From assembly GCA_040901985.1 (NCBI GenBank), contig JBBDYC010000008.1:314636-333373 (forward strand): a stretch of 18,738 bases of DNA, given 5' to 3'. The position numbers and the translations under genes are program-made. Each line of letters starts with the position of its first letter. The stretch's first letter is position 1. This document shows positions 193-16,697 of the stretch, piece by piece. The DNA comes from Gemmatimonadaceae bacterium (GTDB lineage: Bacteria > Gemmatimonadota > Gemmatimonadetes > Gemmatimonadales > Gemmatimonadaceae). The notes under the pieces were generated by a model. The model saw only the letters and a list, made by a program, of their open reading frames with translations, searched no databases and had not been told where the DNA came from.

Positions 193-1062
193 TCAGGTGT
201 AGAGCGAGCCGGTGTTCACCACCGGCTGCGTGGCGTGGTCCGAGCAGAGGACCACCAGCAGGTTGCTCACCATCGCCGCCTTGCGTTCGTTGTCGAGCAC
301 GACGATGGACTTGGCGCTCAACAGCTCGAGCGCCGTCTCGACCATCCCCACCGCGCCCTCGACGATCTTCTGCCGCGCCGCGATGATCGCGCTCGCCTGC
401 TGCCGCTGCAGCATCGCCGCCGCGATCTCCGGCGAGTAGGCCAGGTGGCTGATCCGCGCCTCGACCACCTCGACCCCCGCCTTCAGCAGCCGCTCGACCA
501 GCGCCTTCTCCAACGCGAGCGAGACCTCCTCGGTGTGCGTCGAGAGCGACATCTCGTTCGTCGAATGCGAATCGTAGGGATACTGCGTGGCCACCGAGCG
601 GAGCGCCGACTCCGACTGCACCGACACGTACACCGCGTAGTCGTCCACCTCGAACAGCGCCTCGGCCGAGTCCACCACCTTCCAGACCACGATCGCGCCG
701 ATCTCGATCGGGTTGGAGTGGTTGTCGTTCACCTTGAGCTTGGAGGTCTCAAAATTCCGGATGCGGAGCGAGATTGCCTGCTTCGTCAGGAACGGGTTGG
801 CCCACCAGAAGCCATCCTTGCGGACCGTGCCCTTGTAGGTGCCGAAGAGGACCAGCGCCTTGGCCTCGTTGGGGTGCACGATGAAGAGGCCGGCGAGGAG
901 GAACGACGCCAGGACGACGACGAGCAGCGCCGCGACGCCGGTCACTTCGTGCCCCGCGTGGAACTCGCGGATCATCGCGGCCACGCCGGCGATGTTGACG
1001 ACGAGCAGGCCGATCAACACGGGGAGGCCGCTGGCCGCAGGGTACGGCTTTTCTTGATACAT
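193..1062 (-). CDS. SPFH/band-7 (stomatin/prohibitin-like) membrane protein, 289 aa
   Basis: Two N-terminal hydrophobic segments, then [43 protein letters not shown] and [22 protein letters not shown]. Start placed at ATG 1062 rather than 1092 because AGGAG lies 9 nt upstream of it and 1092 abuts the predicted -10 box. Confidence 0.93.
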
Positions 1063-1093
1063 CGGGTGGAACTCCTGATAGGGTGGTAGCATT

Positions 1094-1257: not shown

Positions 1258-2934
1258 TTGATCTGCGTCCACTGCAGCACGCCCGTCCCTGACGAAGCGA
1301 AGTTCTGCCACTCGTGCGGGTCGCTTGTCTCCGATGCCGGAGGCCAGGCGGCGGCGACGGCGTCAATGGACCAGAACGCGTTTGCGCATCTCGAGAACCT
1401 CCTGCGGGAGGAGATCAAGGGCGAATTCACGCTCGGCAAGATGCTCGGGCGCGGCGGAATGGCGGTGGTGTACCTGGCGACGGAGACGCACCTCTCCCGC
1501 AAGGTCGCGCTGAAGGTTCTCCCGCCGGAGCTGACCTTCGGCCACGGGGTGGACCGTTTCATGCGCGAGGCCAAGACGGCCGCCGCGCTCGACCATCCGC
1601 ACATCATCCCGATCTACCGCATTGGCCAGGGCGGGAAGATTTTCTGGTATGCGATGAAGTTCCTCGAGGGGACGTCGCTCGACGACGTGCTCAAGGACCG
1701 CGGCCCGTACGAGCTCGACGAGGCGCTCGACATCCTCGAGCAGGTGGCCGACGCGCTCGACTACGCGCACGCGCACCAGGTGATTCACCGCGACATCAAG
1801 CCGGCGAACATCATGCTCGACCAGCGGAAGAACGTGGTGATCACGGACTTCGGCATCGCCAAGGCGCTGACGGAGGGCGCGCTGACGGCGTCGGGGTCGG
1901 TGATCGGGACGCCGTACTTCATGTCGCCGGAGCAGGGGATGGGAAAGCCGGTGGCCGGCGCCGCCGACCAGTACTCGGTGGCGGTGATGGCGTACCGGAT
2001 GCTCGCCGGCCACGTCCCGTTCGACGGTGACTCGGCGATTGACATCCTGCACAAGCACTGTATGGCCGAGGCGCCGCGGCTGGACGAGGATATGGAGGGC
2101 ATCCCGACGCACGTCGCCAGCGCGATCGAAAAGGCAATGGCGAAGAAGGCCGCCGACCGGTTCCCGACGGTGAGCGACTTCGTCGCGGCGATGCGGGACG
2201 AGCACCATCTGTACGCTCGGCCGAGCGTGAAGACGGTGATGCTGAGCCCGGACGAGGTGGCAAAGGCGACTTCCGGCCCGCGGAAGCAGGTCACCAAGGC
2301 ATCGGCGAAGAAGGCGGCGAAGACGATGGCGGCGCGCGCGCGGCCGGTGCCGGCGGCGCCGGCGCCGAAGAGCCGTGCCGGCCTCTTCGTCGCGCTCACT
2401 GTGCTCCTCCTCGGCGGGGGCGGCTATGCCGGCTGGACCGTGCTGAACAGGCCGGCCGCAGACCCAGGGTCTGGTACGGTGGCCGAGGCGCCGCCAACGA
2501 CGGATGCGTCAGGCCCCGCCGTCGCGCCCGACTCGACGCCGGCGGTGGTGACGCCGCCGCCGGTCCAGACGCAGCGACAGGACCCGCCGCCGACCACGCG
2601 GCAACCGGATCCAGCGCCGCGTGAGCCGCGGCCGCGCGAACAAGCGCGGGCCACTACACCGCCGGCAAACAACCCGACGCCACCGCCGCAGCAGCCGGCT
2701 CAGCCGCCGGCGGCGGCGGCGCCGGCGACGCTCCGGCTCGGCGTGTCGCCGCCGGCCGACGTGACGATTGACGGCGTGGCGCGGGGCCAGCAGCGGCAGC
2801 TAATTACCGAACTGACCGCCGGCCAGCACCAGATCCGGGTCGAGCGCGAGGGCTACGTCACCAAGGACACCACCGTCACCCTGACCGCGGGACAGACGGA
2901 AACCATCCGCCTGACGCTGGAGCAGCGGCCGTGA
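1258..2934 (+). CDS. Membrane-anchored Hanks-type Ser/Thr protein kinase with N-terminal zinc ribbon and C-terminal PEGA domain, 558 aa
   Basis: TTG start after AGAGAGAG. CVHC...CHSC zinc ribbon. Intact kinase motifs GRGGMAVV, VALK, HRDIKPAN, DFG, GTPYFMSPE and DQYS. Then a basic stretch, TM AGLFVALTVLLLGGGGYAGW (about 2380-2440), a Pro/Gln-rich linker and a PEGA-like domain (about 2725-2925: PPADVTIDG...LTAGQHQIRVEREGY). Confidence 0.95.
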   Translation: MICVHCSTPVPDEAKFCHSCGSLVSDAGGQAAATASMDQNAFAHLENLLREEIKGEFTLGKMLGRGGMAVVYLATETHLSRKVALKVLPPELTFGHGVDRFMREAKTAAALDHPHIIPIYRIGQGGKIFWYAMKFLEGTSLDDVLKDRGPYELDEALDILEQVADALDYAHAHQVIHRDIKPANIMLDQRKNVVITDFGIAKALTEGALTASGSVIGTPYFMSPEQGMGKPVAGAADQYSVAVMAYRMLAGHVPFDGDSAIDILHKHCMAEAPRLDEDMEGIPTHVASAIEKAMAKKAADRFPTVSDFVAAMRDEHHLYARPSVKTVMLSPDEVAKATSGPRKQVTKASAKKAAKTMAARARPVPAAPAPKSRAGLFVALTVLLLGGGGYAGWTVLNRPAADPGSGTVAEAPPTTDASGPAVAPDSTPAVVTPPPVQTQRQDPPPTTRQPDPAPREPRPREQARATTPPANNPTPPPQQPAQPPAAAAPATLRLGVSPPADVTIDGVARGQQRQLITELTAGQHQIRVEREGYVTKDTTVTLTAGQTETIRLTLEQRP

Positions 2935-4568
2935 AGCGCCTTCTTCTCCTTGTCGCCCTGCTGGTCGTCGCGGCACCGACAGCCGGCGCCCAGGGACGCC
3001 GCGCCGAACTCCTGCAGCAGGCGACCGCGGCGTACGACGATTTCGACGCGGCGCGCGCGCTTCGCCTCGTCCGCACGGCGCTCGACCCCGCGCTCGGGCC
3101 GCTCGACACGACCTGGGTGCGCGGGGTGCATCTGCTGACGCAGATCCTGATTGACGAGGACCAAGGACCGCTCGCCACCACGTGGGCGCGCTGGGCGATG
3201 CGCCTCGAGCCGTCCATGACGCTCGATACGGTGAACTTCGTCGCCGAGGTCGTGACCACGATGCGCGAGGCGCGCGCGACAGCGGCCCGCACCGCCGGCG
3301 ACGACGCCACGCGCTCGACGCACGACTGGCCGTCGTTGAACGACGAGGCGCAGCAGGGCAGGTTCCGCGTGGCGCCGAGTCCGGTCCCGGTGAACCTCCT
3401 CGTCGTCGGCCGCGGGCTGATTACCGCCGGCCCGGGGATGCAACTCCCGGCGGGGAGCTACGAGCTCGAGGCGAGTGCCTCCGGGTTCCTCCCCGCCCGC
3501 CTCACGCGCGAGGTGCTGCCTGGCGTGACGATCAACTTCAGCTTCACGCTGACGCCGGCCGCGGCGGCGGCGGCGACGCTTGCCGCCGACGTGCGCTCGC
3601 GCGTCGCGCGCGCGATTGTCCCGCTCAACATCACGCGCTTCGGGATGCCGGCCGCCTGTGCGGCGGGCGTCACGGCCGGCGGCGACAAGCTCGTCCTCAC
3701 GTCGTATCACGCGATCCGCGGCGCCGATGCCATCGTGGCCGGCGGCGGCGCCGCCGGCGCGCCCGACGCGATTCGCGTCGCCGCCTGGGATGTCACGGCC
3801 AACCTGGCCATCCTCGTCGTGCCGACCGCGCCGAGCGACACGCTGCCCCTGACGACCACGCTGACCGACGGGCAGGCGCTCTTTGGCATCGGACTCGCCG
3901 AGTGCCGAACGGCCAACGAGTCGCGCGTGCTGCTCGACACGTGGGCGGGCCGTCCGACCGGAGTGCTCCAGCTGTCCACCGCGCCGACGCTGGCGCTGGC
4001 CGGTTCGCCGCTGGTGGACTATCAGGGAACCATCGCCGGCATCTGGGCTGAGGGCCCGAGCGGCGTGCCGGCGGCAGTGGTCACGCCGCTGATTGCGCGC
4101 GCCCGCGTCAACATCGCGGCGCGGCAGCTGCGCACGCCGCAAGAGGTCGCGCTCGCCGAGCGCCATCGCTACGGCGCGGTGGTGATTGCCGCCGACGTGC
4201 CGACGGCACGAATCAAGGTCACGCCGATCGAGGCGTGGCATTGGGAAGGGCTGATCGCCGAGGGCGCGGGGCCTCTGACCTTCTCGGGGCCGGCCGGCCG
4301 CTACCGGGTGGAGGTCTCGGCGCCCGACGCGACCACGCGGACGCAGGAGATCACGATCATCGCCGGTGAACGGACGCGCGCGGCGGTTTCGTTGCGTCAG
4401 GTGGCCGGCGGGCCCGGCGTACCGGCGGCGCGGGGCCGTGGGCTGCCCCGTTGGGCGTGGTTCGCGATCATCGGCGGCGGCGCCGGGGTCGCGGCGCTCG
4501 CGCTCGGGGGCGGTGGCGGGGGCGGCGAATCCGGCGGCTCCATCGGCCTCTCGGTGCCCAACCCGTGA
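2931..4568 (+). CDS. Exported protein: signal peptide, helical TPR-like region, PEGA-like domain, degenerate trypsin-like domain, second PEGA-like domain, C-terminal TM/Gly-rich tail, 545 aa
   Basis: GTG start overlaps the kinase stop (GTGA). Signal peptide MKRLLLLVALLVVAAPTAGA-Q. PEGA-like motifs LPAGSYELEASASGF and PAGRYRVEVSAP. Trypsin-like motifs VLTSYHAI, DVTANLAIL and AGSPLVDYQGTIAGI. Tail RWAWFAIIGGGAGVAALALGGGGGGG. Confidence 0.85.
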   Translation: MKRLLLLVALLVVAAPTAGAQGRRAELLQQATAAYDDFDAARALRLVRTALDPALGPLDTTWVRGVHLLTQILIDEDQGPLATTWARWAMRLEPSMTLDTVNFVAEVVTTMREARATAARTAGDDATRSTHDWPSLNDEAQQGRFRVAPSPVPVNLLVVGRGLITAGPGMQLPAGSYELEASASGFLPARLTREVLPGVTINFSFTLTPAAAAAATLAADVRSRVARAIVPLNITRFGMPAACAAGVTAGGDKLVLTSYHAIRGADAIVAGGGAAGAPDAIRVAAWDVTANLAILVVPTAPSDTLPLTTTLTDGQALFGIGLAECRTANESRVLLDTWAGRPTGVLQLSTAPTLALAGSPLVDYQGTIAGIWAEGPSGVPAAVVTPLIARARVNIAARQLRTPQEVALAERHRYGAVVIAADVPTARIKVTPIEAWHWEGLIAEGAGPLTFSGPAGRYRVEVSAPDATTRTQEITIIAGERTRAAVSLRQVAGGPGVPAARGRGLPRWAWFAIIGGGAGVAALALGGGGGGGESGGSIGLSVPNP

Positions 4569-7500
4569 TGCGCGCCAGTCGTCGGCTCCTCGGTCTGGCC
4601 GCGGCCACCCTCGCGGGCGGCGTGATTGCGTCGTGCGACGACCCGACGCGTCCGCCGACCGTGGGCGAGATCGCGCCGCGGATTGCCCTCGTGATGCCCG
4701 ACTCGGCGACGCTCGCCTCGCTCGTGCTCCCGCTGACCGCGGTGCGCGCGCAGGTGATCGGCCCGACCTCGAAGATCGTGGATCTCACGCTCGTCGGGTC
4801 GTCGTGGACCGGCAAGGCCAGCGGCCTGAGCGCTGGCGACTATCAGGTGATCATCGAGGGCCTCGCCGCGGGCGAGGTGCAGTTCTACGGCCGCGTGCCG
4901 AGCGTCAGCGTCGTGCGCGGGGCGACCGCGTCGCCGTTCGTGTCATTCGCTGCCGCCGTGCCGGTCGTTGATGCACCGCCGCTGCTCAATACGACCAACT
5001 TCTCGCAACGGATCCCTTTCTCGGCCATTCCGGCGGCGACCGCGTACTCCGTCCAGGTCAGCCAGTCGAGCACCTTCGCGTCAGGGAACATCGAGTTCGT
5101 CACGACGGAGACCAATCCCATCGTGACCGTCACCGGGGTCGGCACCTGGTACGTCCGCACGCGTGCGACGTTGCCGGGAACCTCGTCGCCGGTGCCGTGG
5201 TCGGACTCGCGCACCTTCCAGGTCTTCGAGGCGCTGGGTGGCCGCACCGAGGATGACGCGACGTCCGTCCCGGTGGACCCGCTCCTCCCCGACACGCTGA
5301 GCGACCGCAACCTGACACCGGACGCACGCGAGGACTGGTTTGACTTTGCGGTGCGCGCCGGCGATTCGCTCTTCATCGAGACCGTCGCCGCGCGGCTCTC
5401 GCCGCCCTCGGCGCTCAACACCGTCCTGACGCTGTTCCACCCCGACGCGGTCACCCAGATCGCGACGGACGACAACGGCACCGGGACGGCCGACTCGCGG
5501 ATCGTCGCGGTCGCGCCGGTCACCGACACGCTCAAGATCCGTGTCACCGCGCCGGGCGGCACGTCGGGCCATTACGAGCTGGTGCGCGAGATCCGCCGCC
5601 TCCCGGCGGCGCCCACCGCGCTCGGCGCCACCGTCGTCTCGGGGACGCAGGTGGACCTCGCGTGGACCGACAACGCGGACAACGAGTCGCAGTTCGTCAT
5701 CGAGCGCTGCATTGGCGACAGCTGCACGAACTTCGCCGAGGTGGCGACCGTGCTCTCGAACGTGGTGGCCTATTCGACCAACACGTTGACGCAGGGGCTC
5801 GACTACCGCTGGCGGGTGCGGGCGCGGAACAGCCGCGGGACCTCGGCGCCAACGAACATCGTCCTCACGAGCACGGCCGGACCTGCCGCGCCGACGACGC
5901 TGGGGGCGACGACGATCTCGGCCACGCGGATTGACCTGGCGTGGACGGACAACGCCACCAACGAACTTGGCTACCGCGTCCGCCGCTGCACCGGCGTCGA
6001 CTGCACGCCGACGACGACCGAGATCGCTGAGCTGGGGCCCGGTGCGACATCGCATTCGGATTCCACGGTCGTGTTCGGGCAGTCGTATACGTACCACGTG
6101 ATCGCGTACAACAACGTGATGGAGTCAACGCCGAGCGCCCCGGCGACGGCAAACACCTTCCCGCCGGCCACGCCGTCATCGCTGGTGGCGACGGTGGCTG
6201 GTGCGACGCGGATCACCCTCGCCTGGACCGACAACGCGAGTGACGAGCTGGGCTTCCGGGTCGAGCGCTGCACCGGCGACACCTGCACCGACTTTACCGA
6301 GATTGCCGTCGTCGGCGTGAATGTCACGGCGCACGTGGACTCGGTCGGGCTCGCGTTCAATACCGGCTACCGTTACCGGGTGCGGGCCTTCCACGCCGTG
6401 ACCGGCGTGGCGTATTCGAACATCGCGAACGCCGACACGCGGCCGCCGACCGCGCCCACGTCGCTGACGGCGACCACGGCGCCGGGTCCGCAGGTGGGCC
6501 TGAATTGGACCGACACGTCGGACGATGAGATCGGATTCGTCATCGAGCGCTGTGTCACCGGCGGTTGCACGAACTTCGCGGCGATTGATACCGTGGCCGC
6601 GGGGGTGGTGGGCTTCGCCGACACCGATGTCGTGGTGGGCGAGTCGTACAGCTACCGGGTCTTTGCCCTTGGCGTGCCGGGGAACTCGGCGGTGTCGAAC
6701 GTCGCGAGCACCAACACCAACCTGCCCGGCGCGCCGAGTGGGCTGAGCGCGACGACCGTGAGCGCGTTCCGGATTGACCTCGCGTGGACTGACGGTTCGA
6801 CCAACGAGACGGGCTTTGAGGTCCAGCGGTGTGACGGCGTCGCGTGCGACACGTTCGTTTCGCTGGCGACCTTGGGTGCGGGCGTTCAGGCGCACGAGGA
6901 CTCGACAGCGGCGCCGGGACTGAGCTTCACGTATCGTGTGCGCGCGGTTGGCGTGGTGGGCAACTCCGGGTTCTCGAACGAGGCCACCGCCAACACATTC
7001 GCGCCGGCGGACCCGAGCGGCCTGACCGCGACGACGATCTCCGGCTCGCGGATAGACCTCGCGTGGGTGAACAACGCCCCCGAGGCGACCGAGATGCGGA
7101 TCGAGCGCTGCTCGGGCGTCGGGTGCTCCGGCTTTGTCGAGATTGACGTCGTGCCGGCCGCGCAGACGACGTACCAGAACCTAGGCGGCGCCTTCCCGGT
7201 CGCGCTCAACGAGACCTACAGCTATCGCGTCCGTGCGCAGAATGTGGCGGACGTGTCGGGCTATTCGAACACGGCGACGGCGCACACGATCCAGCCGTCG
7301 GCGCCGACGCTGATGGCGGTGACGGTCAGCGCTTCGCAGATTGACCTCTCGTGGACGGCCTCTACGCCCGACGTCACCGGTTACGAGGTCGAGCGCTGCA
7401 CGAATGTCGGTTGCACGAACTTCCTCTTCCTTGGCGGGACATCCACTCTCCTCTATTCGGACGCCACCGTCTCGGCGGGGAACGACTACCGCTATCGCGT

Positions 7501-10500
7501 CCGCGCGGTGAACGTCGTCGGACCGGGCCCGTACAGCAACACCGCTGACGTCAACACGCGGACGCCGGCGGCGCCGACCGGGCTCGTGGCGACGACGATG
7601 GTCGGAATCGTCCGCCTCACCTGGACGGACAACGCCGACAACGAACTCGGCGTGATCGTCGAACGGTGCGCCGGCGCCGCGTGTGTGCCGGTCGAGCTCA
7701 TCGTCCTCACGACGATCGGCATCGAGACGTGGGACGATTCGAGCGTCGTAGCCAACACCGAGTACACGTACCTCGTGAAGGCGTACAACAGCGCCGGCAC
7801 GTCGGTGGCGTCGTCGGAGTCCTATGCCAATACGCTGATCGCCGACCAAGTGACCGTGCTCTCGGCGACGGCCGTGTCGCCGACCCAGATAGACCTGGCG
7901 TGGACGCCAAGCGCCAGCCAAGGGACCGGGTTGATTCTCAACTACAACGTGTACCGTTGCGACGGCGCCTGCGACCCCGCGACCGGGGCATTGCTCGTGT
8001 CCCTGCCGGCCGATTCGGCGGCGTATGAGGACACCTCGGTCGAAGCCGACAGTGGGTACACGTACGCGGTCGTGCCGCGGACGGCGTTCGGCGAGACGCC
8101 GATTCCAGGGAGCGCAACGGCCTTCGCGAGCACGAAGCTGCCGGCGGCACCGAGCAACCTCGTCGGCACGCTGATGAGCCCGAGCAGCATTCAACTCGCC
8201 TGGACGGACAACTCCGGTAACGAGACGCATTTCGAGGTGGCGCAGTGCGCAGGTGTCGGATGCACGAACTTTGTGACGGTCGCGTCCCCGGGGGCGGGCG
8301 TCACGACGTTCCTTGCCGACACGCTGACCTTCGACGTGCGTTACCGCTTCATCGTGCGCGCGGTGAACACCGCGGGCAGTTCGGCGTGGTCTGACACGCT
8401 CGAGATTGGGACGACGGTGCCGGCGGTGCCGACCGACCTTGAGGCGTACATCACGGACGGCAGCGGCAACATCCGGCTGCTGTGGACCGACGCGTCGGAC
8501 AACGAGAGCGGTTTCGAGATTGATTACTGCGTCGGCGCAGACTGCGAGTCGTGGGTCCTCCTGACGGCGGCAGCCGCGAACACCACGCAGCTCGACCTTG
8601 GGTCCCTGGGAGCAAACACGTTCCGCTTCCGGATCCGCGCGACGAACGCGGCGGGGACCTCAGCGCCATCGGCGTTTACTGAGATCACGGGCGACGGGCC
8701 GTACGCGGCGCCCATTGGAACGATCGCGACGACGACGGGACCGACGAGCATTCTCATCACCTGGTCGGATCAGACCAACAACGAGACCATCTTCAGGATT
8801 CTCCGGTGCACCGGCGGTTCCTGCGACCCCCTCATGGGGACCGTGGTGGACTCCGTTGCCCGTGACGTCACGTCGTTCGACGATACCAGCGTCGGAACCG
8901 GGGCGCTCTATCGCTACGTGGTGGTTGCCGTGAACGGCTTTGGGGAGTTGGCGTCCGCGGCGTTCGACGGCCACACGATGCTGCCCGATGCGCCGGGCAC
9001 CCTGTCGGCGACGACGATCTCCAGCGCGGAGATTGCCTTGGCGTGGACCGACGGCGGGCCGTTCGAGACCGGGTACGTGATCGAGCGCTGCCAGGGCGGA
9101 GGGTGCACCGGTTTTGCGGTGATTGACACCGTACCGGCGAACTTCGTGTCGTTCAACGACACCGGATTGTCGGCGAACGCGACGTACCGGTATCGCGTGC
9201 AGGCGATCAATGCCGTGGGCGCGTCGGCGTACTCAAACATCGCCGAAAAAGCGACCGATATACCGGCCACGCCGACCGATCTCAGTGCGTTGGCGATGAC
9301 GACCACGCGGATTGACCTCGCCTGGACCGACAACGCGACGAACGAGGACTTCTACATCGTCGAGCGGTGCGCGGGCACCTGCGACGCCAGCGGGACGTTC
9401 GTCCAGATCGAGACGGGGCTCGCCCCGAATGCGCAGGCCTACACGGACAACGGCGTCAGCGCAGGCCAGACGTACAGCTATCGCGTACAAGCCCTGAATG
9501 CGGGCGGCGCGAGCCCGTACACGAACATCGCGACGGCCACCGCGGCAGCACCGATTGACCCGACCGACCTGACGGCGACGACCCTCAGCGGCACGATGAT
9601 CGCGCTGACGTGGACCGACAATGCGACGAATGAGCTGAGCTACCAGATCGAGCGGTGCACGAGCGCGACGTGTCCGACCTTCACGTTGCGGAAGACACTC
9701 GCGCCGGACGCGACCGGGTACGTGGATACCGTCGCGGTGGACGACACGTACACGTACCGCGTCCGCGCCGTCAACAACGTCGGCGCTTCGGGCTATACGA
9801 GTGAGGAGTCGGCGAACACGCTCCGGCCGTTTGCGGCGAGCGGCTTCACCGCCGTCACGGTCTCGGGGACGCGCATTGACCTCTCGTGGACGGACAACGC
9901 CGCCGACGAGGACGGGTACGTGATCGAGCGGTGCAGCGGCGTCGGCTGTTCGGACTTTGCCATTCTCGACTCGTTGCCGGTGGATGCGAGCGGCTATCAG
10001 AACGACGGCATTGCGACGGAGACCTCGTTCACCTACCGGCTGTACGGCTACAACGTTGCCGGTCCGTCGGACATCACGGGCCCCGTGACCGCGACGACAA
10101 TCACGCCAGCCGCACCCACGAGCTTGGCGGCGGTGCTTGCCGCGCCGGGCCAGATCGACCTCAGCTGGACCGACAACGCCGACAACGAGCTCCACTATCG
10201 CGTCGAGCGTTGTAGTGCGGGCACCAGCAAGTGCGCCACGGCGGACTCGATGAACGTCTACGCCGTGGAGATCGCGACGCTCGGGCCGGACGCAGTCAGC
10301 TATTCCGATGCCGGCCTCGCCCCGGCGACACTCTACTTCTATCGAGTCCGTGCGACGAACACCGCCGGCTCGTCGCCGTACTCGGCGATCGTGAGCCGGA
10401 GCACGAGCGTTCCGCCGGCCCCGACGGGCCTGGTGGCGGTGACGATCCTGGCCACGCGCATTGATCTGACTTGGACCGACGCCTCGGCCAACGAGGATGG

Positions 10501-13500
10501 GTTCCGTGTGGAGCGCTGCATCGGACCCGATCCGTGCACGAGCTTCACGCAGATCGTCGAGTTGCCGGCGAACACCACGAGCCACGTGGACTCGACGCTG
10601 ACCGCGGGACTTGAGGTGTGGTACCGCGTCCTCGCCTTCAACGGTGGCGGCGCGAACGCCTCCGGTGTCGTGTCGGCCACCACCATTGTGCCGGCGACAC
10701 CGAGCGACTTCTCGGCCGTGGCGAGCGGGCAGGCGACGGTGAACCTCGGCTGGGTGGACAACGCCAGCGACGAGGCTGGCTTCTACCTCGAGCGTTGCAC
10801 CGGTCTCGATTGCAGCGACTTCGTCCCGCTGGACACGCTCGCGATTGATGCGGTGGCCTACGCCGACCTGGCCGTGACGGCCGACAATGTCTATCGCTAT
10901 CGCCTGCGGGCATTCGGCAACGGCCACTCGGGCTACACGCCGATCGCATCGGTGGCGACGATCCTGCCGAACGCGGTGACGGATCTCGTGGCGACGGCGA
11001 TGTCCGATACGCGGGTGGATTTGTCGTGGACGGACAATACTTCCACGGATTCCCTGTGGAACGAGACGGAGTTTGCCGTTTATCGCTGCGCCGGAGTGTC
11101 GTGTACGCCCACGGTGCTCCACGCCTCGGTCGGGCGCGATACGACCTTCTTCTCCGATTCGTTGCTTCCGCCCGCCGAGACGTTCAGCTACCACATCGTG
11201 GCGTTGAACCTCGCAGGGGCCGCCGCGCCGAGCAATGTGGCGACGGCTGCCACGACGGTTCCCGCCATTCCGACGTCGCTCGCCGATTCCACCCTCTCGG
11301 CGACGGAAGTGCTGTTGACGTGGGTGGACAATGCCGGCAACGAGACGGGCTATGAGATCGAGCGGTGCGAGGGCGGCACGTGCACGGATTTCGCTCCGGT
11401 TGACACCGCGGCGGCGAATGAACAATCGCGCGTGATGGGTGGGCTCGTCGGGACGTCCGCGTACCGGTTCCGTGTCCGCGCCTTCAATGCCAGCGGAAGC
11501 TCCGGGTACTCGAACATCGTGCTGGCGCGTTCCGACGTACCGCCGGCACCGACGGCGCTCGTGGGCGCGACGGTCTCGCCGACGCAGGTGGCCCTCGCGT
11601 GGGCGGATAACGCCGAGAACGAGACGGCTTACGTCGTCGAGCGCTGCGACGGCACCGGATGCGGCGGCTTTGTCGTGATTGATTCGCTCGCCGCCGACGT
11701 GACGTCGTATCAAGACCTGTCAATCGCGATTGACACCGTCTATCGGTACCGCGTGCGGGCCAGCAACATTGTCGGTCCGTCGCCGTACACGGCCGAGATT
11801 GCGGTGAGCACCTATCGCCCAGCGACGCCGACGGACCTCGCGGCGACGCCAATCTCAGCGACGCGCGTGGACCTGACCTGGACCGACGTTGCCGTGAACG
11901 ACACGGTCATCATCGTCGAGCGGTGTTTCGGCCTCGGGTGCTCGTCCTTCGCCGACATTGACTCGTTGGCGCCCGACGCGACCGCGTACAGCGACACGAC
12001 CGTGACGGTCAACAACACATACAACTATCGGTTGCGCGCTGAGAACGCGGCGGGCGCCTCGGCGCCGACCGACTCGGTCGAGGTGGGGACGTTCATCCCG
12101 TCGGATCCCTCGGGACTGACGGCCGTGACGAACAGTGCGACGGAGATTACGCTGACGTGGGTTGACAACTCGGGCACCGACGAGCTCGACTTCCTCATCG
12201 AGCGCTGCGTGGGCGCGGGCTGTACGGTGTTCGATTCGCTGGCGGTGGTTCTCCTCGACGTGGTCACCTACCAGGACGCCACCGCGTCGCTGGGGAACGA
12301 GTATTCGTACCGCGTGATTGCGCGCGGCGGCGGCGGGAACTCCGCCCCGTCGAACGTGGCGACGGCCCACACCTTCCCGGCGGGGGATGTGACCGCGCTG
12401 ACGGCGTCGCCGCTGACTTCGACCACGTTGCAGCTCGCGTGGTCGGCGGCGGAGTTCGTCACGTCGTACCAGATCGCCACGGTGATCGGCAGCGATACGA
12501 CACTCTTCGCCACGGTGTCCGCATCGGTCACCGACACCGTCGTCACCGTGACGACGGGGCAGGTGTACAACTTCGTCGTGCGGGCGGGCAACGCCGCGGG
12601 CTCCGGTGCCTACGCTGGCGCCGAAGTGGCGATGACGCCGCCGCCGGCCCCGGTGGACCTCACAGTCTTCCCGCTCACCACCAGCCAGGCCTCGCTGGCG
12701 TGGGGCGACACCTCCGCTCGGGAGACCGGGTTCGAGGTCGAGCGCGCCTTCTTCAGCAGCGGCTCCTTCGGTAGCTACAGCACCGTGGCGACACTCGGAG
12801 CCGACGTTACTGCGCATATCGACGAAGTGAGCGCAGCGACGGGCCGCTACAAGTACCGGGTGCGCGCGGTCAACCAGATCGGCGCCGGCGACTATTCCAA
12901 CGAGGTTGACCTGACGTTGACGGCGCCGCTGGCCCCGAGCGGCCTGTCGGCGGCTGTGACCGCGCCAGGCCAGATCACGCTTCTGTGGACCGACAACTCG
13001 GACAACGAGCAGTCATTCTCGATCGAACGGAGCGTCGGCAACAACCTGAGCTTCGCACAGATTGCGACGGTCGGGCCCGGCCTGCAGTCGCACGTGGATT
13101 CGAGCGGTCTCACCATCAACACGACGTACTTCTACCGCGTCCGGGCCATCAACAGCATCGGCGCGTCGGGCTACACGAACGAGGCCTCCACGGCGACGAC
13201 GGTTCCGAACGCTGTCACTTCGATGACCACGCTGATTCTGAGCTCGACGAGCATCCAGGTGAACTGGGATGGGTCCGGGACGACGGGTGAACTTGGATTC
13301 CGCATCTATCGCTGCGTGGGGAGCAGTTGCACCGACTTCACCCTGCTGGACGGGTCGTTGCCCGCGGACGCGAGCACCTATGCGGATGTGGCCGCCGCCT
13401 ACGGCAATATCTATCGCTATCAGGCGCGGCCGTACAACATCGCGGGCGAACCGTCGAGCAATCCGACGGTCCAGCGCGCCTTGGTGTTGCCGACGCCGTT

Positions 13501-15010
13501 CATTCAGGTTGCCTTGCCAGTGAATCGCACGGATTTGCGAGTCCGGTGGAATGCCGCCCCATTCACCTGGGAAACGGACTTCGAAATCGAGCAGTGCGCC
13601 GGCCTCACGTGCTCAGACTTTGCGCCGTTGGCGACACTAGCGGCGGACGACTCAACGTACGTTTCGACGGGTTTGCCGGCTAACGGTGCCTGGCATCGGT
13701 ATCGTGTGCGCGCGGTGGCCGATGGAAACCTCGGGCCGTGGTCGAATCTCTTCTCGACGCACACGCCGAAGGAAGTGACGCTCGGCGACACCCTGGTGAC
13801 CGTGACGTCGCCGGAGTTGGTGAGCATCAATATGACGCACTACGTCGTGGCGATGCCGGCCGGTTCGCCGACCGTGGAGGTGTCGATTGGCGAGGATCCG
13901 GGCGGCACCACGTCAAACGGCGGCACGTTCCTGCTTGTGCAGCGCAGCAAGCCCATTGAGCGGCCGGCGAACGAGATCTTTAACACGGGTGCGTTGGTCG
14001 GCGATACGCTCTGCGCGCCGGGCGTCTTCACTCGCTCCTCCACCGCCCCGCATTCCGTCACCTGCTCGCTGCCGCAGCTGGGCGTGACCACCGACTACTA
14101 CATCACCACGTATTCCAATCCGTACACGAACCTGTTCCTAAGCGCGTTGCCGGGACCGACGACGTACGGATTCAACAACTGCACACAGACGGGGCGTCTC
14201 GGGCCGGTGCAGGGCCAGTGCGATGCGGCCTACGCGGGCACGTCGCTGGCCGCGCAGGTAGTTGTGGCCGACTCGGGCTTCCAGGACTGGACAGTGCCGT
14301 TCAGCGGACGCTGGGCGGTCGTTGCGACGGGCGCGGCGGGTGCCGCGGCGGACCCCGCCCGACTTGGTGGGCGCGGCGCGCGGATTTACGGCGAGTTTGT
14401 TCTCACGGCGGGGCAGAACCTGCGTGTGGCGGTTGGGCAGATGGGCAGCGGTGCCGGTACGAGCACCAACGGTGGTGGCGGAGGCGGCAGCTTCGTGTAC
14501 GATTTGACTGGGGCCACTCCGATGCTCATCGCGGGCGGCGGCGGCGGTACGCGCGCGGCCGTTGATCAGAATGGGTGTGATGCCTCCACGACCGTCTTTG
14601 GCACAATCGCCAGTGGCGACGCCACGACCACGCCATGTACAGTGAAGGTCACGGACGCTGGTCTGGGAGGCATTGTGAGTTCTGGCTCGTGGGGGTCAGC
14701 GGGCGCGGGATTCAACGGGAATGGCGCGGACGACTTCGACGAGCCGCTCGCAGGCGGTCGGTCGTGGGCGAACTTCATCCTCGGTGGCAGGGATGCCGGC
14801 TGCGGCAGCGGCGACGGCGGCTTCGGCGGCGCCGGATCCGGCTACGGCTGCTACGGCGGCGGCGGCGGCGGCGGTTACTCGGGCGGTGACGGCGGGCGCG
14901 TGGCCGGCGGCGGCGGCTCATTCAACGCCGGCACCAACACCGCGGCGGTCGTGGGCGTCGGTACAGCCCACGGCACCGTCATCCTGAAGTACCTCGGCCC
15001 CGTGGACTGA
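4568..15010 (+). CDS. Giant surface lipoprotein, 3480 aa: lipobox, N-terminal beta domains, PPC domain, 29 tandem FN3 domains, second PPC-like domain, ALK/LTK-like glycine-rich domain
   Basis: ATG 4568 overlaps the upstream stop (TGATG) and gives the signal peptide II MRASRRLLGLAAATLAGGVIAS-C23. The frame is uninterrupted for 10.4 kb. FN3 consensus is P.AP..L.A...S...I.L.W.DN..NE..F.IERC....C..F......Y.YRVRA.N..G.S..S. Confidence 0.93.
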   Translation: MRASRRLLGLAAATLAGGVIASCDDPTRPPTVGEIAPRIALVMPDSATLASLVLPLTAVRAQVIGPTSKIVDLTLVGSSWTGKASGLSAGDYQVIIEGLAAGEVQFYGRVPSVSVVRGATASPFVSFAAAVPVVDAPPLLNTTNFSQRIPFSAIPAATAYSVQVSQSSTFASGNIEFVTTETNPIVTVTGVGTWYVRTRATLPGTSSPVPWSDSRTFQVFEALGGRTEDDATSVPVDPLLPDTLSDRNLTPDAREDWFDFAVRAGDSLFIETVAARLSPPSALNTVLTLFHPDAVTQIATDDNGTGTADSRIVAVAPVTDTLKIRVTAPGGTSGHYELVREIRRLPAAPTALGATVVSGTQVDLAWTDNADNESQFVIERCIGDSCTNFAEVATVLSNVVAYSTNTLTQGLDYRWRVRARNSRGTSAPTNIVLTSTAGPAAPTTLGATTISATRIDLAWTDNATNELGYRVRRCTGVDCTPTTTEIAELGPGATSHSDSTVVFGQSYTYHVIAYNNVMESTPSAPATANTFPPATPSSLVATVAGATRITLAWTDNASDELGFRVERCTGDTCTDFTEIAVVGVNVTAHVDSVGLAFNTGYRYRVRAFHAVTGVAYSNIANADTRPPTAPTSLTATTAPGPQVGLNWTDTSDDEIGFVIERCVTGGCTNFAAIDTVAAGVVGFADTDVVVGESYSYRVFALGVPGNSAVSNVASTNTNLPGAPSGLSATTVSAFRIDLAWTDGSTNETGFEVQRCDGVACDTFVSLATLGAGVQAHEDSTAAPGLSFTYRVRAVGVVGNSGFSNEATANTFAPADPSGLTATTISGSRIDLAWVNNAPEATEMRIERCSGVGCSGFVEIDVVPAAQTTYQNLGGAFPVALNETYSYRVRAQNVADVSGYSNTATAHTIQPSAPTLMAVTVSASQIDLSWTASTPDVTGYEVERCTNVGCTNFLFLGGTSTLLYSDATVSAGNDYRYRVRAVNVVGPGPYSNTADVNTRTPAAPTGLVATTMVGIVRLTWTDNADNELGVIVERCAGAACVPVELIVLTTIGIETWDDSSVVANTEYTYLVKAYNSAGTSVASSESYANTLIADQVTVLSATAVSPTQIDLAWTPSASQGTGLILNYNVYRCDGACDPATGALLVSLPADSAAYEDTSVEADSGYTYAVVPRTAFGETPIPGSATAFASTKLPAAPSNLVGTLMSPSSIQLAWTDNSGNETHFEVAQCAGVGCTNFVTVASPGAGVTTFLADTLTFDVRYRFIVRAVNTAGSSAWSDTLEIGTTVPAVPTDLEAYITDGSGNIRLLWTDASDNESGFEIDYCVGADCESWVLLTAAAANTTQLDLGSLGANTFRFRIRATNAAGTSAPSAFTEITGDGPYAAPIGTIATTTGPTSILITWSDQTNNETIFRILRCTGGSCDPLMGTVVDSVARDVTSFDDTSVGTGALYRYVVVAVNGFGELASAAFDGHTMLPDAPGTLSATTISSAEIALAWTDGGPFETGYVIERCQGGGCTGFAVIDTVPANFVSFNDTGLSANATYRYRVQAINAVGASAYSNIAEKATDIPATPTDLSALAMTTTRIDLAWTDNATNEDFYIVERCAGTCDASGTFVQIETGLAPNAQAYTDNGVSAGQTYSYRVQALNAGGASPYTNIATATAAAPIDPTDLTATTLSGTMIALTWTDNATNELSYQIERCTSATCPTFTLRKTLAPDATGYVDTVAVDDTYTYRVRAVNNVGASGYTSEESANTLRPFAASGFTAVTVSGTRIDLSWTDNAADEDGYVIERCSGVGCSDFAILDSLPVDASGYQNDGIATETSFTYRLYGYNVAGPSDITGPVTATTITPAAPTSLAAVLAAPGQIDLSWTDNADNELHYRVERCSAGTSKCATADSMNVYAVEIATLGPDAVSYSDAGLAPATLYFYRVRATNTAGSSPYSAIVSRSTSVPPAPTGLVAVTILATRIDLTWTDASANEDGFRVERCIGPDPCTSFTQIVELPANTTSHVDSTLTAGLEVWYRVLAFNGGGANASGVVSATTIVPATPSDFSAVASGQATVNLGWVDNASDEAGFYLERCTGLDCSDFVPLDTLAIDAVAYADLAVTADNVYRYRLRAFGNGHSGYTPIASVATILPNAVTDLVATAMSDTRVDLSWTDNTSTDSLWNETEFAVYRCAGVSCTPTVLHASVGRDTTFFSDSLLPPAETFSYHIVALNLAGAAAPSNVATAATTVPAIPTSLADSTLSATEVLLTWVDNAGNETGYEIERCEGGTCTDFAPVDTAAANEQSRVMGGLVGTSAYRFRVRAFNASGSSGYSNIVLARSDVPPAPTALVGATVSPTQVALAWADNAENETAYVVERCDGTGCGGFVVIDSLAADVTSYQDLSIAIDTVYRYRVRASNIVGPSPYTAEIAVSTYRPATPTDLAATPISATRVDLTWTDVAVNDTVIIVERCFGLGCSSFADIDSLAPDATAYSDTTVTVNNTYNYRLRAENAAGASAPTDSVEVGTFIPSDPSGLTAVTNSATEITLTWVDNSGTDELDFLIERCVGAGCTVFDSLAVVLLDVVTYQDATASLGNEYSYRVIARGGGGNSAPSNVATAHTFPAGDVTALTASPLTSTTLQLAWSAAEFVTSYQIATVIGSDTTLFATVSASVTDTVVTVTTGQVYNFVVRAGNAAGSGAYAGAEVAMTPPPAPVDLTVFPLTTSQASLAWGDTSARETGFEVERAFFSSGSFGSYSTVATLGADVTAHIDEVSAATGRYKYRVRAVNQIGAGDYSNEVDLTLTAPLAPSGLSAAVTAPGQITLLWTDNSDNEQSFSIERSVGNNLSFAQIATVGPGLQSHVDSSGLTINTTYFYRVRAINSIGASGYTNEASTATTVPNAVTSMTTLILSSTSIQVNWDGSGTTGELGFRIYRCVGSSCTDFTLLDGSLPADASTYADVAAAYGNIYRYQARPYNIAGEPSSNPTVQRALVLPTPFIQVALPVNRTDLRVRWNAAPFTWETDFEIEQCAGLTCSDFAPLATLAADDSTYVSTGLPANGAWHRYRVRAVADGNLGPWSNLFSTHTPKEVTLGDTLVTVTSPELVSINMTHYVVAMPAGSPTVEVSIGEDPGGTTSNGGTFLLVQRSKPIERPANEIFNTGALVGDTLCAPGVFTRSSTAPHSVTCSLPQLGVTTDYYITTYSNPYTNLFLSALPGPTTYGFNNCTQTGRLGPVQGQCDAAYAGTSLAAQVVVADSGFQDWTVPFSGRWAVVATGAAGAAADPARLGGRGARIYGEFVLTAGQNLRVAVGQMGSGAGTSTNGGGGGGSFVYDLTGATPMLIAGGGGGTRAAVDQNGCDASTTVFGTIASGDATTTPCTVKVTDAGLGGIVSSGSWGSAGAGFNGNGADDFDEPLAGGRSWANFILGGRDAGCGSGDGGFGGAGSGYGCYGGGGGGGYSGGDGGRVAGGGGSFNAGTNTAAVVGVGTAHGTVILKYLGPVD
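5600..13768 (+). repeat. Coding tandem array of 29 diverged FN3 repeats (about 94 aa / 280 bp period)
   Basis: Counted by hand from LPAAPTALGA to NLFSTHTP. Recurrent nucleotide cores such as GACCTCGCGTGGACCGACAACGC and ATCGAGCGCTGC are visible. Confidence 0.9.
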
Positions 15011-15045: not shown

Positions 15046-15852
15046 ATGCGCATCCGACTCGGCTGCCAGGGCTGGAACTACCCGGCGTGGGTGGGCGGCT
15101 TCTACCCTGACCGCACCCGCGCCGCCGACTTCCTGACGGTCTACGCGCGCGCCTTCGACACGGTCGAGGTGGACTCCACGTTCTACGCCGTCCCCGCCGT
15201 GAAGTCCGTCCGCGGCTGGCGCGAGCGCACACCCGACGGCTTCACATTCGCCCTCAAGCTCCCGCAGGAGATCACGCACGAGCGTCGCTTCGTGGACGCG
15301 CTCGACGTCGCCGAGCGCTTCTACGACGTGGCCCGCGAACTCGGCCCCAAGCTCGGCCCGGTGCTGATCCAGTGCGGCCCTGACTTCGCGCCCACCGAAC
15401 GCGACGCCCTCGAGGAGTTCCTCCTCACGCTGCCCAAGGACATCGCCTTTGCCATCGAGTTCCGCCAGAAAGGGTGGATCAACGAGGCAACGCTCGAGAT
15501 GCTCACGCCGCGGAACGTGGCGCTCGCGCTCGTGGACGCGCGGTGGATCCCGGCGAAGTGGATGCAGAAGCTCGTCGAGCGGCCGACCGCGTCCCACGCC
15601 TACGTGCGATGGATGGGACCCGACCGCTCCATCACCGACTTCTCGCGCGTGCTGGTGGACCGGACGGCGGATCTCGAGGTCTGGGCCGAGCTCCTGCCGG
15701 CGCTCGCCGTGAAGGTCCCCGTGTATGGTTACGTGAACAACCACTTCAGCGGCCACAGTCCGGAGAACGTGCGGACGCTCCAGAAGTTGCTCGGCCAGAC
15801 GCCGAAGGACCCGGCCCAACTTCGAGAGCAGTTGGGATTGTTTGAGTGTTAA
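15046..15852 (+). CDS. DUF72 (YecE-like) domain protein, 268 aa
   Basis: Motifs IRLGCQGWNYPAW.G.FYP, FDTVEVDSTFYAVP, FTFALKLPQEITH, LGPVLIQ, AIEFR, YVRWMG and YGYVNNH. Confidence 0.92.
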   Translation: MRIRLGCQGWNYPAWVGGFYPDRTRAADFLTVYARAFDTVEVDSTFYAVPAVKSVRGWRERTPDGFTFALKLPQEITHERRFVDALDVAERFYDVARELGPKLGPVLIQCGPDFAPTERDALEEFLLTLPKDIAFAIEFRQKGWINEATLEMLTPRNVALALVDARWIPAKWMQKLVERPTASHAYVRWMGPDRSITDFSRVLVDRTADLEVWAELLPALAVKVPVYGYVNNHFSGHSPENVRTLQKLLGQTPKDPAQLREQLGLFEC

Positions 15853-15900
15853 CTCTATACCTGACAACACTTTAGCAGCTCACACCGTTTGCCCTACCAG

Positions 15901-16632
15901 ATGCGCCCGCGCACCCTGCTCGCCCTCATCATCCCGCTCTTTTGTGCGGCGCTCTTCGTGCGCCTCGGCCTTTGGCAACTCAATCGCCACCGCGACCGCG
16001 CGGTCATCAACGCGGCGCTGGCTACGAGGCTCGCTGCCGAGCCGATTCCGCTCGGCGCGCTCGCCTCCGACACGCTGGACCGTCGCTGGACACGTATCAC
16101 GGTGTCGGGACGCTTTCGCTACGACCTCGAGCAGATTCTCGCCGGACGAACGAGCGAGGGCTCGCCCGGCGTACACCTCCTGACGCCGCTGAGCGTCCCG
16201 GGGACGGATGCGCTGATCGTCGTCACGCGGGGCTGGGTCTATTCCCCCGACGCCGCGAGCGCCGACCTGGGCCGCTGGCGCGAGGCCGAGGAGGTGTCGC
16301 TGGCCGGTTATCTCCTGCCGTTGGCCTCCGCCCGTGCCGATGCGCCGGTGGACACCTCCGGTGCGCTCCGCGTGGCCACCCGCGCGGCGCTTGAGGCACG
16401 GCTGGGCCAGCCCGTTGCACCGGTGCAGATCGTGATGACTTCGGACTCGCTCGCCCGTGTTGACTCGGTGCCGCGGCGACTCCCCCCGCCGACGATTGAC
16501 GTCGGTCCCCACCGGTCGTACGCAATCCAGTGGTTCGCCTTTGCCGTCATCGCCGCCGTCGGCGGGGTGATTCTCTTTCGCTCATCCGGCAAGTCCCAGC
16601 GCGGCATTGTCGCCGACCGCGCCGGGGGGTAG
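15901..16632 (+). CDS. SURF1/Shy1 family protein (heme-copper oxidase assembly factor family)
   Basis: N-terminal TM ending LGLWQLNR, then PGVHLLTPL, VVTRGWV and C-terminal HRSYAIQWFAFA plus TM. ATG 15901 is preferred over TTG 15889, but the start is uncertain. Confidence 0.9.
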   Translation: MRPRTLLALIIPLFCAALFVRLGLWQLNRHRDRAVINAALATRLAAEPIPLGALASDTLDRRWTRITVSGRFRYDLEQILAGRTSEGSPGVHLLTPLSVPGTDALIVVTRGWVYSPDAASADLGRWREAEEVSLAGYLLPLASARADAPVDTSGALRVATRAALEARLGQPVAPVQIVMTSDSLARVDSVPRRLPPPTIDVGPHRSYAIQWFAFAVIAAVGGVILFRSSGKSQRGIVADRAGG

Positions 16633-16697
16633 CTATAAGTACGCTGCGGGAAGCCCTGCGACCCGCCGAGTGGGACCTTTCTCCGGAGGTGGCCGGG

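Follow-up and report, generated by a model that had tools for sequence, protein, structure and literature searches.

We examined a window of 18,738 nucleotides (the whole stretch of DNA analysed) from a Gemmatimonadaceae genome of 2.64 Mb that is 99.97% complete and holds 27 kinase-like open reading frames. Three genes follow one another on its forward strand, and the original prediction that they are coupled through overlapping stop and start codons was borne out at both junctions, with GTGA at 2931-2934 between genes 1 and 2 and TGATG at 4566-4570 between genes 2 and 3. GC3 is 0.87-0.90 in all three, as in the neighbouring genes. The start of gene 3 was placed at the ATG at 4568, and a longer frame from a TTG at 4451 was dropped, because it would bury the signal peptide. 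The features are as follows.

1258-2934, + strand: gene 1, membrane Hanks-type Ser/Thr kinase of 558 aa (Pfam, motifs, TTG start)
1264-1323, + strand: Zn ribbon of gene 1
about 1429-2202, + strand: kinase domain of gene 1 (Pkinase, E 3.6e-46)
2377-2442, + strand: transmembrane segment of gene 1 (single hydrophobic stretch, residues 374-392)
2443-2724, + strand: Pro-rich stalk of gene 1 (94-aa linker, 30% Pro)
2725-2931, + strand: PEGA domain of gene 1 (Pfam, E 1.2e-10 at residues 500-557)
2931-4568, + strand: gene 2, exported candidate adaptor of 545 aa (Pfam, signal peptide, predicted structure)
2994-3554, + strand: N-terminal part of gene 2, a five-helix TPR-like domain (2994-3305) and a first PEGA-like domain (predicted structure)
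3585-4400, + strand: optional insert of gene 2, a dead HtrA/S1C-fold protease (3585-4118) and a second PEGA domain (4167-4400)
4431-4532, + strand: tail of gene 2, basic residues, then a Gly/Ala-rich hydrophobic stretch, then a poly-Gly linker
4533-4565, + strand: last beta-strand of gene 2 (G-x-I-x-I-x-V-P type), candidate donor strand
4568-15010, + strand: gene 3, giant lipoprotein of 3,480 aa (ATG start, lipobox)
4568-4633, + strand: signal peptide of gene 3
4634, + strand: lipidated Cys of gene 3 (Cys23, predicted from the lipobox)
4634-4963, + strand: conserved transthyretin-like base domain, candidate acceptor (conservation, predicted structure)
4664-4693, + strand: first (anchor) strand of the base
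4697-4735, + strand: variable loop of the base
4964-5233, + strand: second conserved beta-domain
about 5330-5602, + strand: PPC-like domain
5603-13771, + strand: stalk of 29 FN3 repeats, most with a Cys pair, mean mutual identity 34%
13754-14143, + strand: unassigned 130-aa domain before the tip
14144-15007, + strand: swappable tip, ALK/LTK-like TNF-like plus glycine-rich domain

The kinase retains the motifs GxGxxG, VALK, HRDIKPAN, DFG and SPE, which correspond to the Gly loop, VAxK, HRDxKxxN, DFG and APE-type motifs of Hanks-type Ser/Thr kinases. Together with the one hydrophobic stretch and the PEGA match, these intact motifs agree with the earlier proposal of a kinase whose PEGA domain would be extracytoplasmic. 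A quick tree without bootstrap placed the kinases of cassette loci in at least two separate groups.

Gene 2 carries a signal peptide, a Trypsin_2 match (E 6.3e-7) and two PEGA/CarboxypepD_reg domains, and its predicted fold (pLDDT 90) comprises five helices, a PEGA-like sandwich, an HtrA-type domain, a second PEGA domain and a low-confidence tail. The helical domain at its start had gone unnoticed in the original prediction, and we call it TPR-like tentatively, gene 2 itself having no Pfam TPR match. The protease-like domain has the chymotrypsin-like fold of the HtrA/S1C type (VIA Z 19.7, rmsd 3.1, 185 residues aligned); its catalytic His is retained, Asp is replaced by Asn and Ser by Ala. An active protease was rejected, since the full His-Asp-Ser triad occurred in 0 of 111 gene 2 homologues and in none of 19 further loci. 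The best fold match is the S1C domain of RsgI9 from Clostridium thermocellum (PDB 7sjy, the Z of 19.7 above), with DegS tying within 1 Z; in PMC12203970 the RsgI9 domain is described as a protease-like domain that binds cellulose within a transmembrane sensor. RsgI9 is an anti-sigma factor, whereas the protease-like domain of the cassette is an optional insert, absent together with the second PEGA domain from gene 2 forms of 277-308 aa. The PEGA-like and dead-protease parts of the earlier description of gene 2 therefore stand, but the C-terminal anchor is not its end, as a poly-Gly linker and a conserved beta-strand come after it.

In gene 3, the stalk of 29 FN3 repeats would reach ~100 nm at ~3.5 nm per repeat, beyond the size of the periplasm. 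Of 13 long relatives, 7 have exactly 29 FN3 repeats despite different tips, and the others have 23-25 or 33 (relatives named in this comparison are L028, L029, P0148, P0153, P0229 and P0255). Homology of the tip to LTK/ALK ectodomains, as first proposed, is genuine (phmmer E 2.7e-11, to LTK), although the tip falls below the Pfam PF12810 cut-off (E 3.5). Against the Atlas the tip scored 0.96, PF12810 being present on about 30% of cluster members, and these look-alikes are largely phage proteins. The corresponding module of the ALK/LTK receptors (PDB 7nx0, 7nwz) is a TNF-like plus glycine-rich ectodomain in the same chain as a transmembrane segment and a tyrosine kinase; in the cassette it lies in a separate chain from a Ser/Thr kinase. 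An ALK-like tip was found in 6 of 20 long relatives examined, some of them redundant, and was rejected as a defining part on that ground. The parallel with animal ALK-type receptors that the original prediction had drawn was not supported: with an optional dead protease and an ALK/LTK-like tip that is one among many, it is incidental. According to PMC13243192, glycine-rich domains like the tip are phage adhesin tips.

A divergent SPFH/Band 7 gene (193-1092, minus strand) precedes the kinase in the window and also in L001, L028 and L029; it occurs in several same-family loci and is absent from more distant ones. Downstream, positions 15046-18617 encode DUF72, SURF1 and acyl-CoA dehydrogenase proteins; among related loci DUF72 is found downstream in L029 only, and there was no sign that any of the three belongs to the system. 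As noted at the outset of the work, the 18,738-nt window contains no phosphatase or FHA gene; FHA genes were found in nine related loci, two of them confirmed by Pfam FHA. Promoter and terminator scans were at chance level, and an NCBIfam scan gave no name over the cut-off.

Conservation and co-occurrence of the cassette modules

Among 8,000 scored candidates we found 111 homologues of gene 2, those with names belonging to Gemmatimonas and Gemmatimonadaceae, and 42 metagenome loci were collected. Full-length matches occurred in 7 of 301 family genomes, the source genome included, while the gene 2 profile matched 109 of 401 phylum genomes, mostly weakly and partially (a tally that includes three unpublished genomes). 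At E 1e-4 the base-domain profile, built from 37 rows, hit 43 of 401 genomes of the phylum; 28 matches reached 3e-11 or better, and a gap separated them from the rest. In a sister family it hit 48 of 401 genomes. The cassette is patchy even close to home, being present in 4 of 8 other genomes of its own genus, and as a rule each locus has one lipoprotein. The linkage of kinase-PEGA, gene 2 and large lipoprotein that had been anticipated was recovered across the phylum; the cassette is real and conserved there.

The N-terminal domain of the lipoprotein is conserved across relatives while stalks and tips vary, again as predicted. It sits at the N-terminus in 122 of the best 150 representative proteins, at lengths of 122-4,599 aa, and among 19 base-bearing proteins scanned it is continued by FN3, Big, InlB-type or invasin stalks that end in RCC1-like, Kelch, PPC or glycine-rich domains. 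Turnover at the tip can be seen within the genus, where the loci L028 and L030 have kinases ~76% identical over the kinase region and a different tip.

At the other end of the cassette, the PEGA domain of the kinase and the N-terminal part of gene 2 were both present in 58 and both absent in 7 of 65 distinct pairs, with no mixed case. Six of the seven losses belong to a single lineage whose kinase has a double kinase domain and lacks a transmembrane segment (two scanned), and in which the kinase still adjoins gene 2, so that the joint loss amounts to about two events. By a strict pattern, 29 of 35 testable loci have a same-strand kinase immediately upstream, a figure that rose to 33 once four motif variants had been checked, leaving one divergent and one absent; the kinase is missing at L090, L189 and L200 and divergent at L107.

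Of 58 distinct gene 2 tails, 52 have at least 600 nt downstream, and 49 of these lead directly into a base domain, a figure that is partly circular because 36 of the tallied loci went into the base model; the three misses are two false matches of the pattern and one inverted piece. In held-out genomes, some of whose base-domain matches repeat training proteins, the tail lay directly upstream in 32 of 50 matches. The other 18 comprise five near a contig end, two with a damaged gene 2, two in or beside such an operon and nine stand-alone lipoprotein bases, and two further stand-alone base domains were found beyond this set. Gene 2 thus appears to behave as a two-sided adaptor, its TPR-like N-terminal part co-varying with the kinase PEGA domain and its tail with the lipoprotein base, which is consistent with the adaptor role first suggested for it.

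The same tail occurs in another class of the phylum on a protein of 151-171 aa with an unrelated N-terminal part, followed by a base domain, and the first gene encodes PEGA-caspase (4) or PEGA-SPOR (2) in place of the kinase in all six loci scanned; the caspase-fold neighbours retain His and Cys in three of four. In a sister arrangement, a TPR-like gene behind a kinase ends in two hydrophobic stretches in 18 of 20 cases and is mostly followed by a ~215-aa barrel-like protein (a weak Pfam match in one of four), with no base domain near the TPR-like gene in any of 20 loci. Since some loci lack the kinase or have another protein in its place, the invariant core consists of adaptor tail and lipoprotein base, and this core may be first of all a display device.

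These observations bear on whether the cassette senses anything at all. It could be a device for surface display or adhesin anchoring, in which the lipoprotein depends on gene 2 for its export, folding or tethering and no signal from outside is sensed, the PEGA protein acting as a periplasmic strut or as an inside-out controller of assembly. The replacement of the kinase in the other class and its absence at three loci fit such a device, as do the tips, built from modules typical of binding (RCC1-like and Kelch propellers, PPC, Big, glycine-rich), and the barrel-like protein behind the TPR gene in the sister arrangement. In the main class, however, 33 of 35 testable loci have an intact kinase immediately upstream, with its PEGA domain tied to the N-terminal part of gene 2, and FHA genes occur in nine loci; we regard the display reading, in its tethering and in its inside-out form alike, as unlikely but worth keeping in view.

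The tail of gene 2 and the lipoprotein base

Basic residues ahead of a hydrophobic stretch that is 60% Gly/Ala were found in the tails of 91 of 111 gene 2 homologues. Inner-membrane stop-transfer anchors follow the positive-inside rule, and the tail is unlike such an anchor because its K/R excess lies before the hydrophobic stretch and not after it (K/R more numerous ahead in 88 of 91 tails). On a hydrophobicity scale, the stretch is weaker on average than the kinase transmembrane segment (2.7 ± 1.2 versus 1.2 ± 1.5; 29 kinases), and in the source genome the kinase segment is about as weakly hydrophobic as the gene 2 stretch (2.25 versus 2.03). In nine loci (L069-L072, L076, L091-L094) the tail runs past the last strand into a short hydrophobic helix ending in Arg, which we take to bear a faint likeness to a PEP-CTERM sorting signal.

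The orientation of the tail also bears on a type I layout, in which gene 2, with its signal peptide and one C-terminal hydrophobic stretch, would be an inner-membrane co-receptor whose Ser/Thr-rich last strand lies in the cytoplasm and binds the kinase or is its substrate, the lipoprotein being a separate ligand-presenting partner. Thr and Ser do occur in the tail, and kinases without a transmembrane segment stand beside gene 2 forms without the TPR-like part (L089, L102, L198, L201, L202, L204). The reversed charge bias argues against this arrangement, as does the retention of the tail in kinase-free loci, always with a base domain, and its resemblance to the first strand of the lipoprotein. 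Both the cytoplasmic role of the strand and the separate role of the lipoprotein are improbable on this evidence.

The last strand of gene 2 and the first strand of the lipoprotein share the consensus T-T-G-S/G-I-x-I/L. Since the last-strand consensus equals that of the strand behind the lipoprotein Cys, the tail reads as a copy of the 'membrane anchor plus strand 1' of the lipoprotein. The mean BLOSUM score of this likeness was 12.1 for the lipoprotein first strand, compared with 8.8, 5.4 and 2.8 for three PEGA first strands. Strands of the same locus resembled each other more than shuffled pairs (13.1 versus 12.1 ± 0.5, p = 0.028; 72 pairs, kinship uncorrected), an effect that was not significant in the first 36 pairs (p = 0.088), and in 31 of 72 pairs the last strand had its best match within the first ~225 positions of its partner among the first 17. 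The window's own first strand is atypical, scoring 7.8 against tails, no better than the second PEGA domain of gene 2.

The base domain is modelled (pLDDT 90) as a transthyretin-like sandwich, to which N-domains of type V pilins can be aligned over 91-98 of 110 residues at Z 6.0-7.1, in comparisons where Z under 8 is common. They rank below a lyase domain (Z 9.3) and, at Z 9.1, a Bacteroides DUF4876 protein. Foldseek returned no match to the base domain at E 0.001; a PDB sequence search gave weak FN3-type rows and, among the best 60 of 89, no pilin except weak Gram-positive pilus rows; and Pfam gave no pilin family among the best 25 of 36 families. The loop behind the first strand varies from 6 to 83 aa across 37 loops, which have no R/K cleavage motif in common, and the loop in the window contains none. 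Asp directly follows the lipidated Cys in 48 of 93 relatives, and at least two of the residues after Cys are D/E in 41 of 93. Asp at +2 is an inner-membrane retention signal in E. coli. The acidic residues behind the Cys also resemble the surface export signal of Bacteroidetes (PMC5080379).

Structure prediction for a 34-residue tail with base residues 22-110, the first strand having been removed, scored 0.49, against 0.02 for the best of three controls, and the runs agreed in at least 95% of contacts with partner pLDDT of at least 51. Of 157 solved complexes 116 reach the pass mark, as do 2 of 215 mismatches; passing scores of 0.60 or less include only 18 of the 157 solved complexes but both passing mismatches. 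The base without its first strand presents a gap that many strands might fill, and no interface came with the output. The anticipated contact between gene 2 and the N-terminus of the lipoprotein thus gains weak support from modelling. Column co-variation between tail and base gave a top z of 5.5 against shuffled maxima of 3.1-5.2, with control pairs no stronger (78 pairs, effective 64, kinship uncorrected).

A co-transcribed block without any complex would account for part of this, the strand likeness then being a relic of duplication or the generic first strand of such folds. It would sit well with the stand-alone base lipoproteins (9 of 50), with the moderate correlation of module distances (Spearman 0.15-0.48, 24 loci) and with a co-variation signal so close to its shuffled maxima. 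Matched pairs of modules come and go together, however, while their neighbours are exchanged, the tail is conserved over a phylum, and the kinases of cassette loci form at least two separate groups, which makes a block without contacts very improbable. We consider a physical chain of some kind between the three proteins to be somewhat probable.

Proposed mechanism and relation to known systems

In the specific form that we favour, the three proteins form an envelope-spanning chain of kinase, adaptor and plug-in lipoprotein, for which the evidence is about evenly balanced. The kinase would sit in the inner membrane and raise its PEGA domain on the Pro-rich stalk to the TPR-like N-terminal part of gene 2 in the periplasm, as their co-presence suggests. 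The weakly hydrophobic stretch of gene 2 would anchor it in a membrane, most probably the outer membrane, with the last strand on the far side, where it would dock in the lipoprotein base, most simply in the groove of the lipoprotein's own lipid-bearing first strand. True strand replacement at the base is rather unlikely. If the variable loop were cut, the ~100-nm fibre would leave its lipid and pass to the adaptor, as a tip pilin of type V passes to its donor. In the weakest steps of the scheme, the variable tip would bind a surface or ligand, its occupancy, its load or completed assembly would be passed to the kinase, and the kinase would phosphorylate FHA-type targets, the FHA proteins of the nine loci being likely candidates. 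The fullest version, a plug-and-socket receptor in which giant lipoproteins are cut from lipid and strand-exchanged onto a single-pass outer-membrane adaptor that docks an inner-membrane kinase, we hold to be possible but on balance unlikely. If true, phosphorylation signalling across both membranes, without any barrel, would be coupled to the chemistry of type V pili, which up to now has been described only from Bacteroidia.

The parallel for the joint is the type V pilus of Bacteroidia (FimA/Mfa1 stalk, Mfa2 anchor, tip pilins), in which, according to PMC13655056, a protease cuts the loop behind the lipidated anchor strand and the C-terminal donor strand of a partner replaces that strand. 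Both the cassette and these pili have a lipidated Cys with an anchor strand behind it in a transthyretin-like N-domain and a loop after that, and both have a partner whose C-terminal strand is free and a variable adhesive tip without a donor strand; the cassette base matches the Cys, anchor strand and loop arrangement at fold level only. The donor strand of type V pili lies on polymerising two-domain lipoprotein pilins, whereas that of the cassette would lie on a TPR-PEGA protein with a hydrophobic stretch that is neither pilin nor lipoprotein. The cassette has no polymerising subunit, its stalk being 29 FN3 domains in one chain, it lacks the conserved Arg/Lys site of loop cleavage, a kinase is attached to it, and it belongs to another phylum. 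No gingipain (PF01364) was found in the source genome, and 14 control genomes were blank too. The cassette is not a member of the type V pili; by analogy, its tail-to-base joint would work like a type V anchor-tip pair.

In overall logic the proposed relay resembles the GlnH-GlnX-PknG system of Actinobacteria (PMC9769921), which likewise combines a lipoprotein, a membrane transducer and a Hanks kinase with FHA targets. There GlnH is a small solute-binding protein, GlnX has four transmembrane helices and PknG is cytoplasmic, whereas the cassette kinase carries a transmembrane segment and a PEGA stalk of its own. The two systems have unrelated folds and the host of the cassette is two-membraned; domain content differs for all three proteins, and the cassette does not belong to this relay. 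The geometry of the proposed contact calls to mind the TonB-dependent transducers. In FecA-FecR-FecI, the periplasmic domain of an inner-membrane protein meets the periplasmic extension of an envelope protein that senses the outside. The cassette differs in having no TonB-dependent barrel, anti-sigma or sigma factor, with phosphorylation as its output, and no TonB-dependent transducer, anti-sigma or ECF sigma gene was found among the window genes.

No description of a kinase-adaptor-lipoprotein cassette was found in searches of the open-licence literature, and the main text of PMC11032199 contains no 'PEGA'; as far as searched, the cassette is undescribed. Kinase-rich diderms have many membrane kinases without an evident sensor, and the cassette is a candidate route by which such kinases could read the outside across the outer membrane, with two small interfaces, one between PEGA and the TPR-like part and one between an 11-residue strand and a 110-residue domain. 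If the proposed chain is correct, donor-strand anchoring of surface lipoproteins would extend beyond Bacteroidia and the cassette would provide a natural modular display platform, with cargo as long as 4,600 residues. A side interest of the ALK/LTK-like tip in bacteria is the origin of that domain.

Variant and sister loci

In the other class of the phylum, seven loci (L113-L116, L162-L164) have a secreted PEGA-Ig-caspase or PEGA-SPOR protein ahead of a tail protein without a Pfam family and a base lipoprotein, and genome G310 has four loci of this kind. The lineage of double-domain kinases without a transmembrane segment, whose gene 2 forms have no TPR-like part (the six loci from L089 to L204 named above), has an FHA-bearing gene upstream, and L202 has a tandem second copy of gene 2 and lipoprotein. 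At L211 (384-1800), a 208-aa TPR protein of another family with the same tail lies ahead of a base lipoprotein and behind a PEGA-like gene; it may stem from another lineage, the bin being 7% contaminated.

The lipoprotein gene or its start is inverted relative to gene 2 at L060 (6761-9264) and G713:C79, which represents either misassembly or a real inversion switch. Frameshifts break cassette genes in L031, L102, L103 and L098, which are few-contig assemblies, and are probably sequencing errors; an apparent fusion of kinase and gene 2 at L103 was rejected as a frameshift artefact, with an out-of-frame stretch and a second signal peptide. The source genome itself carries a second cassette, of the sister type, on the minus strand (G000:C9:128391-133230), which consists of a kinase, a 363-aa exported protein with a helix and strand at its end and a lipoprotein-like barrel-type gene.
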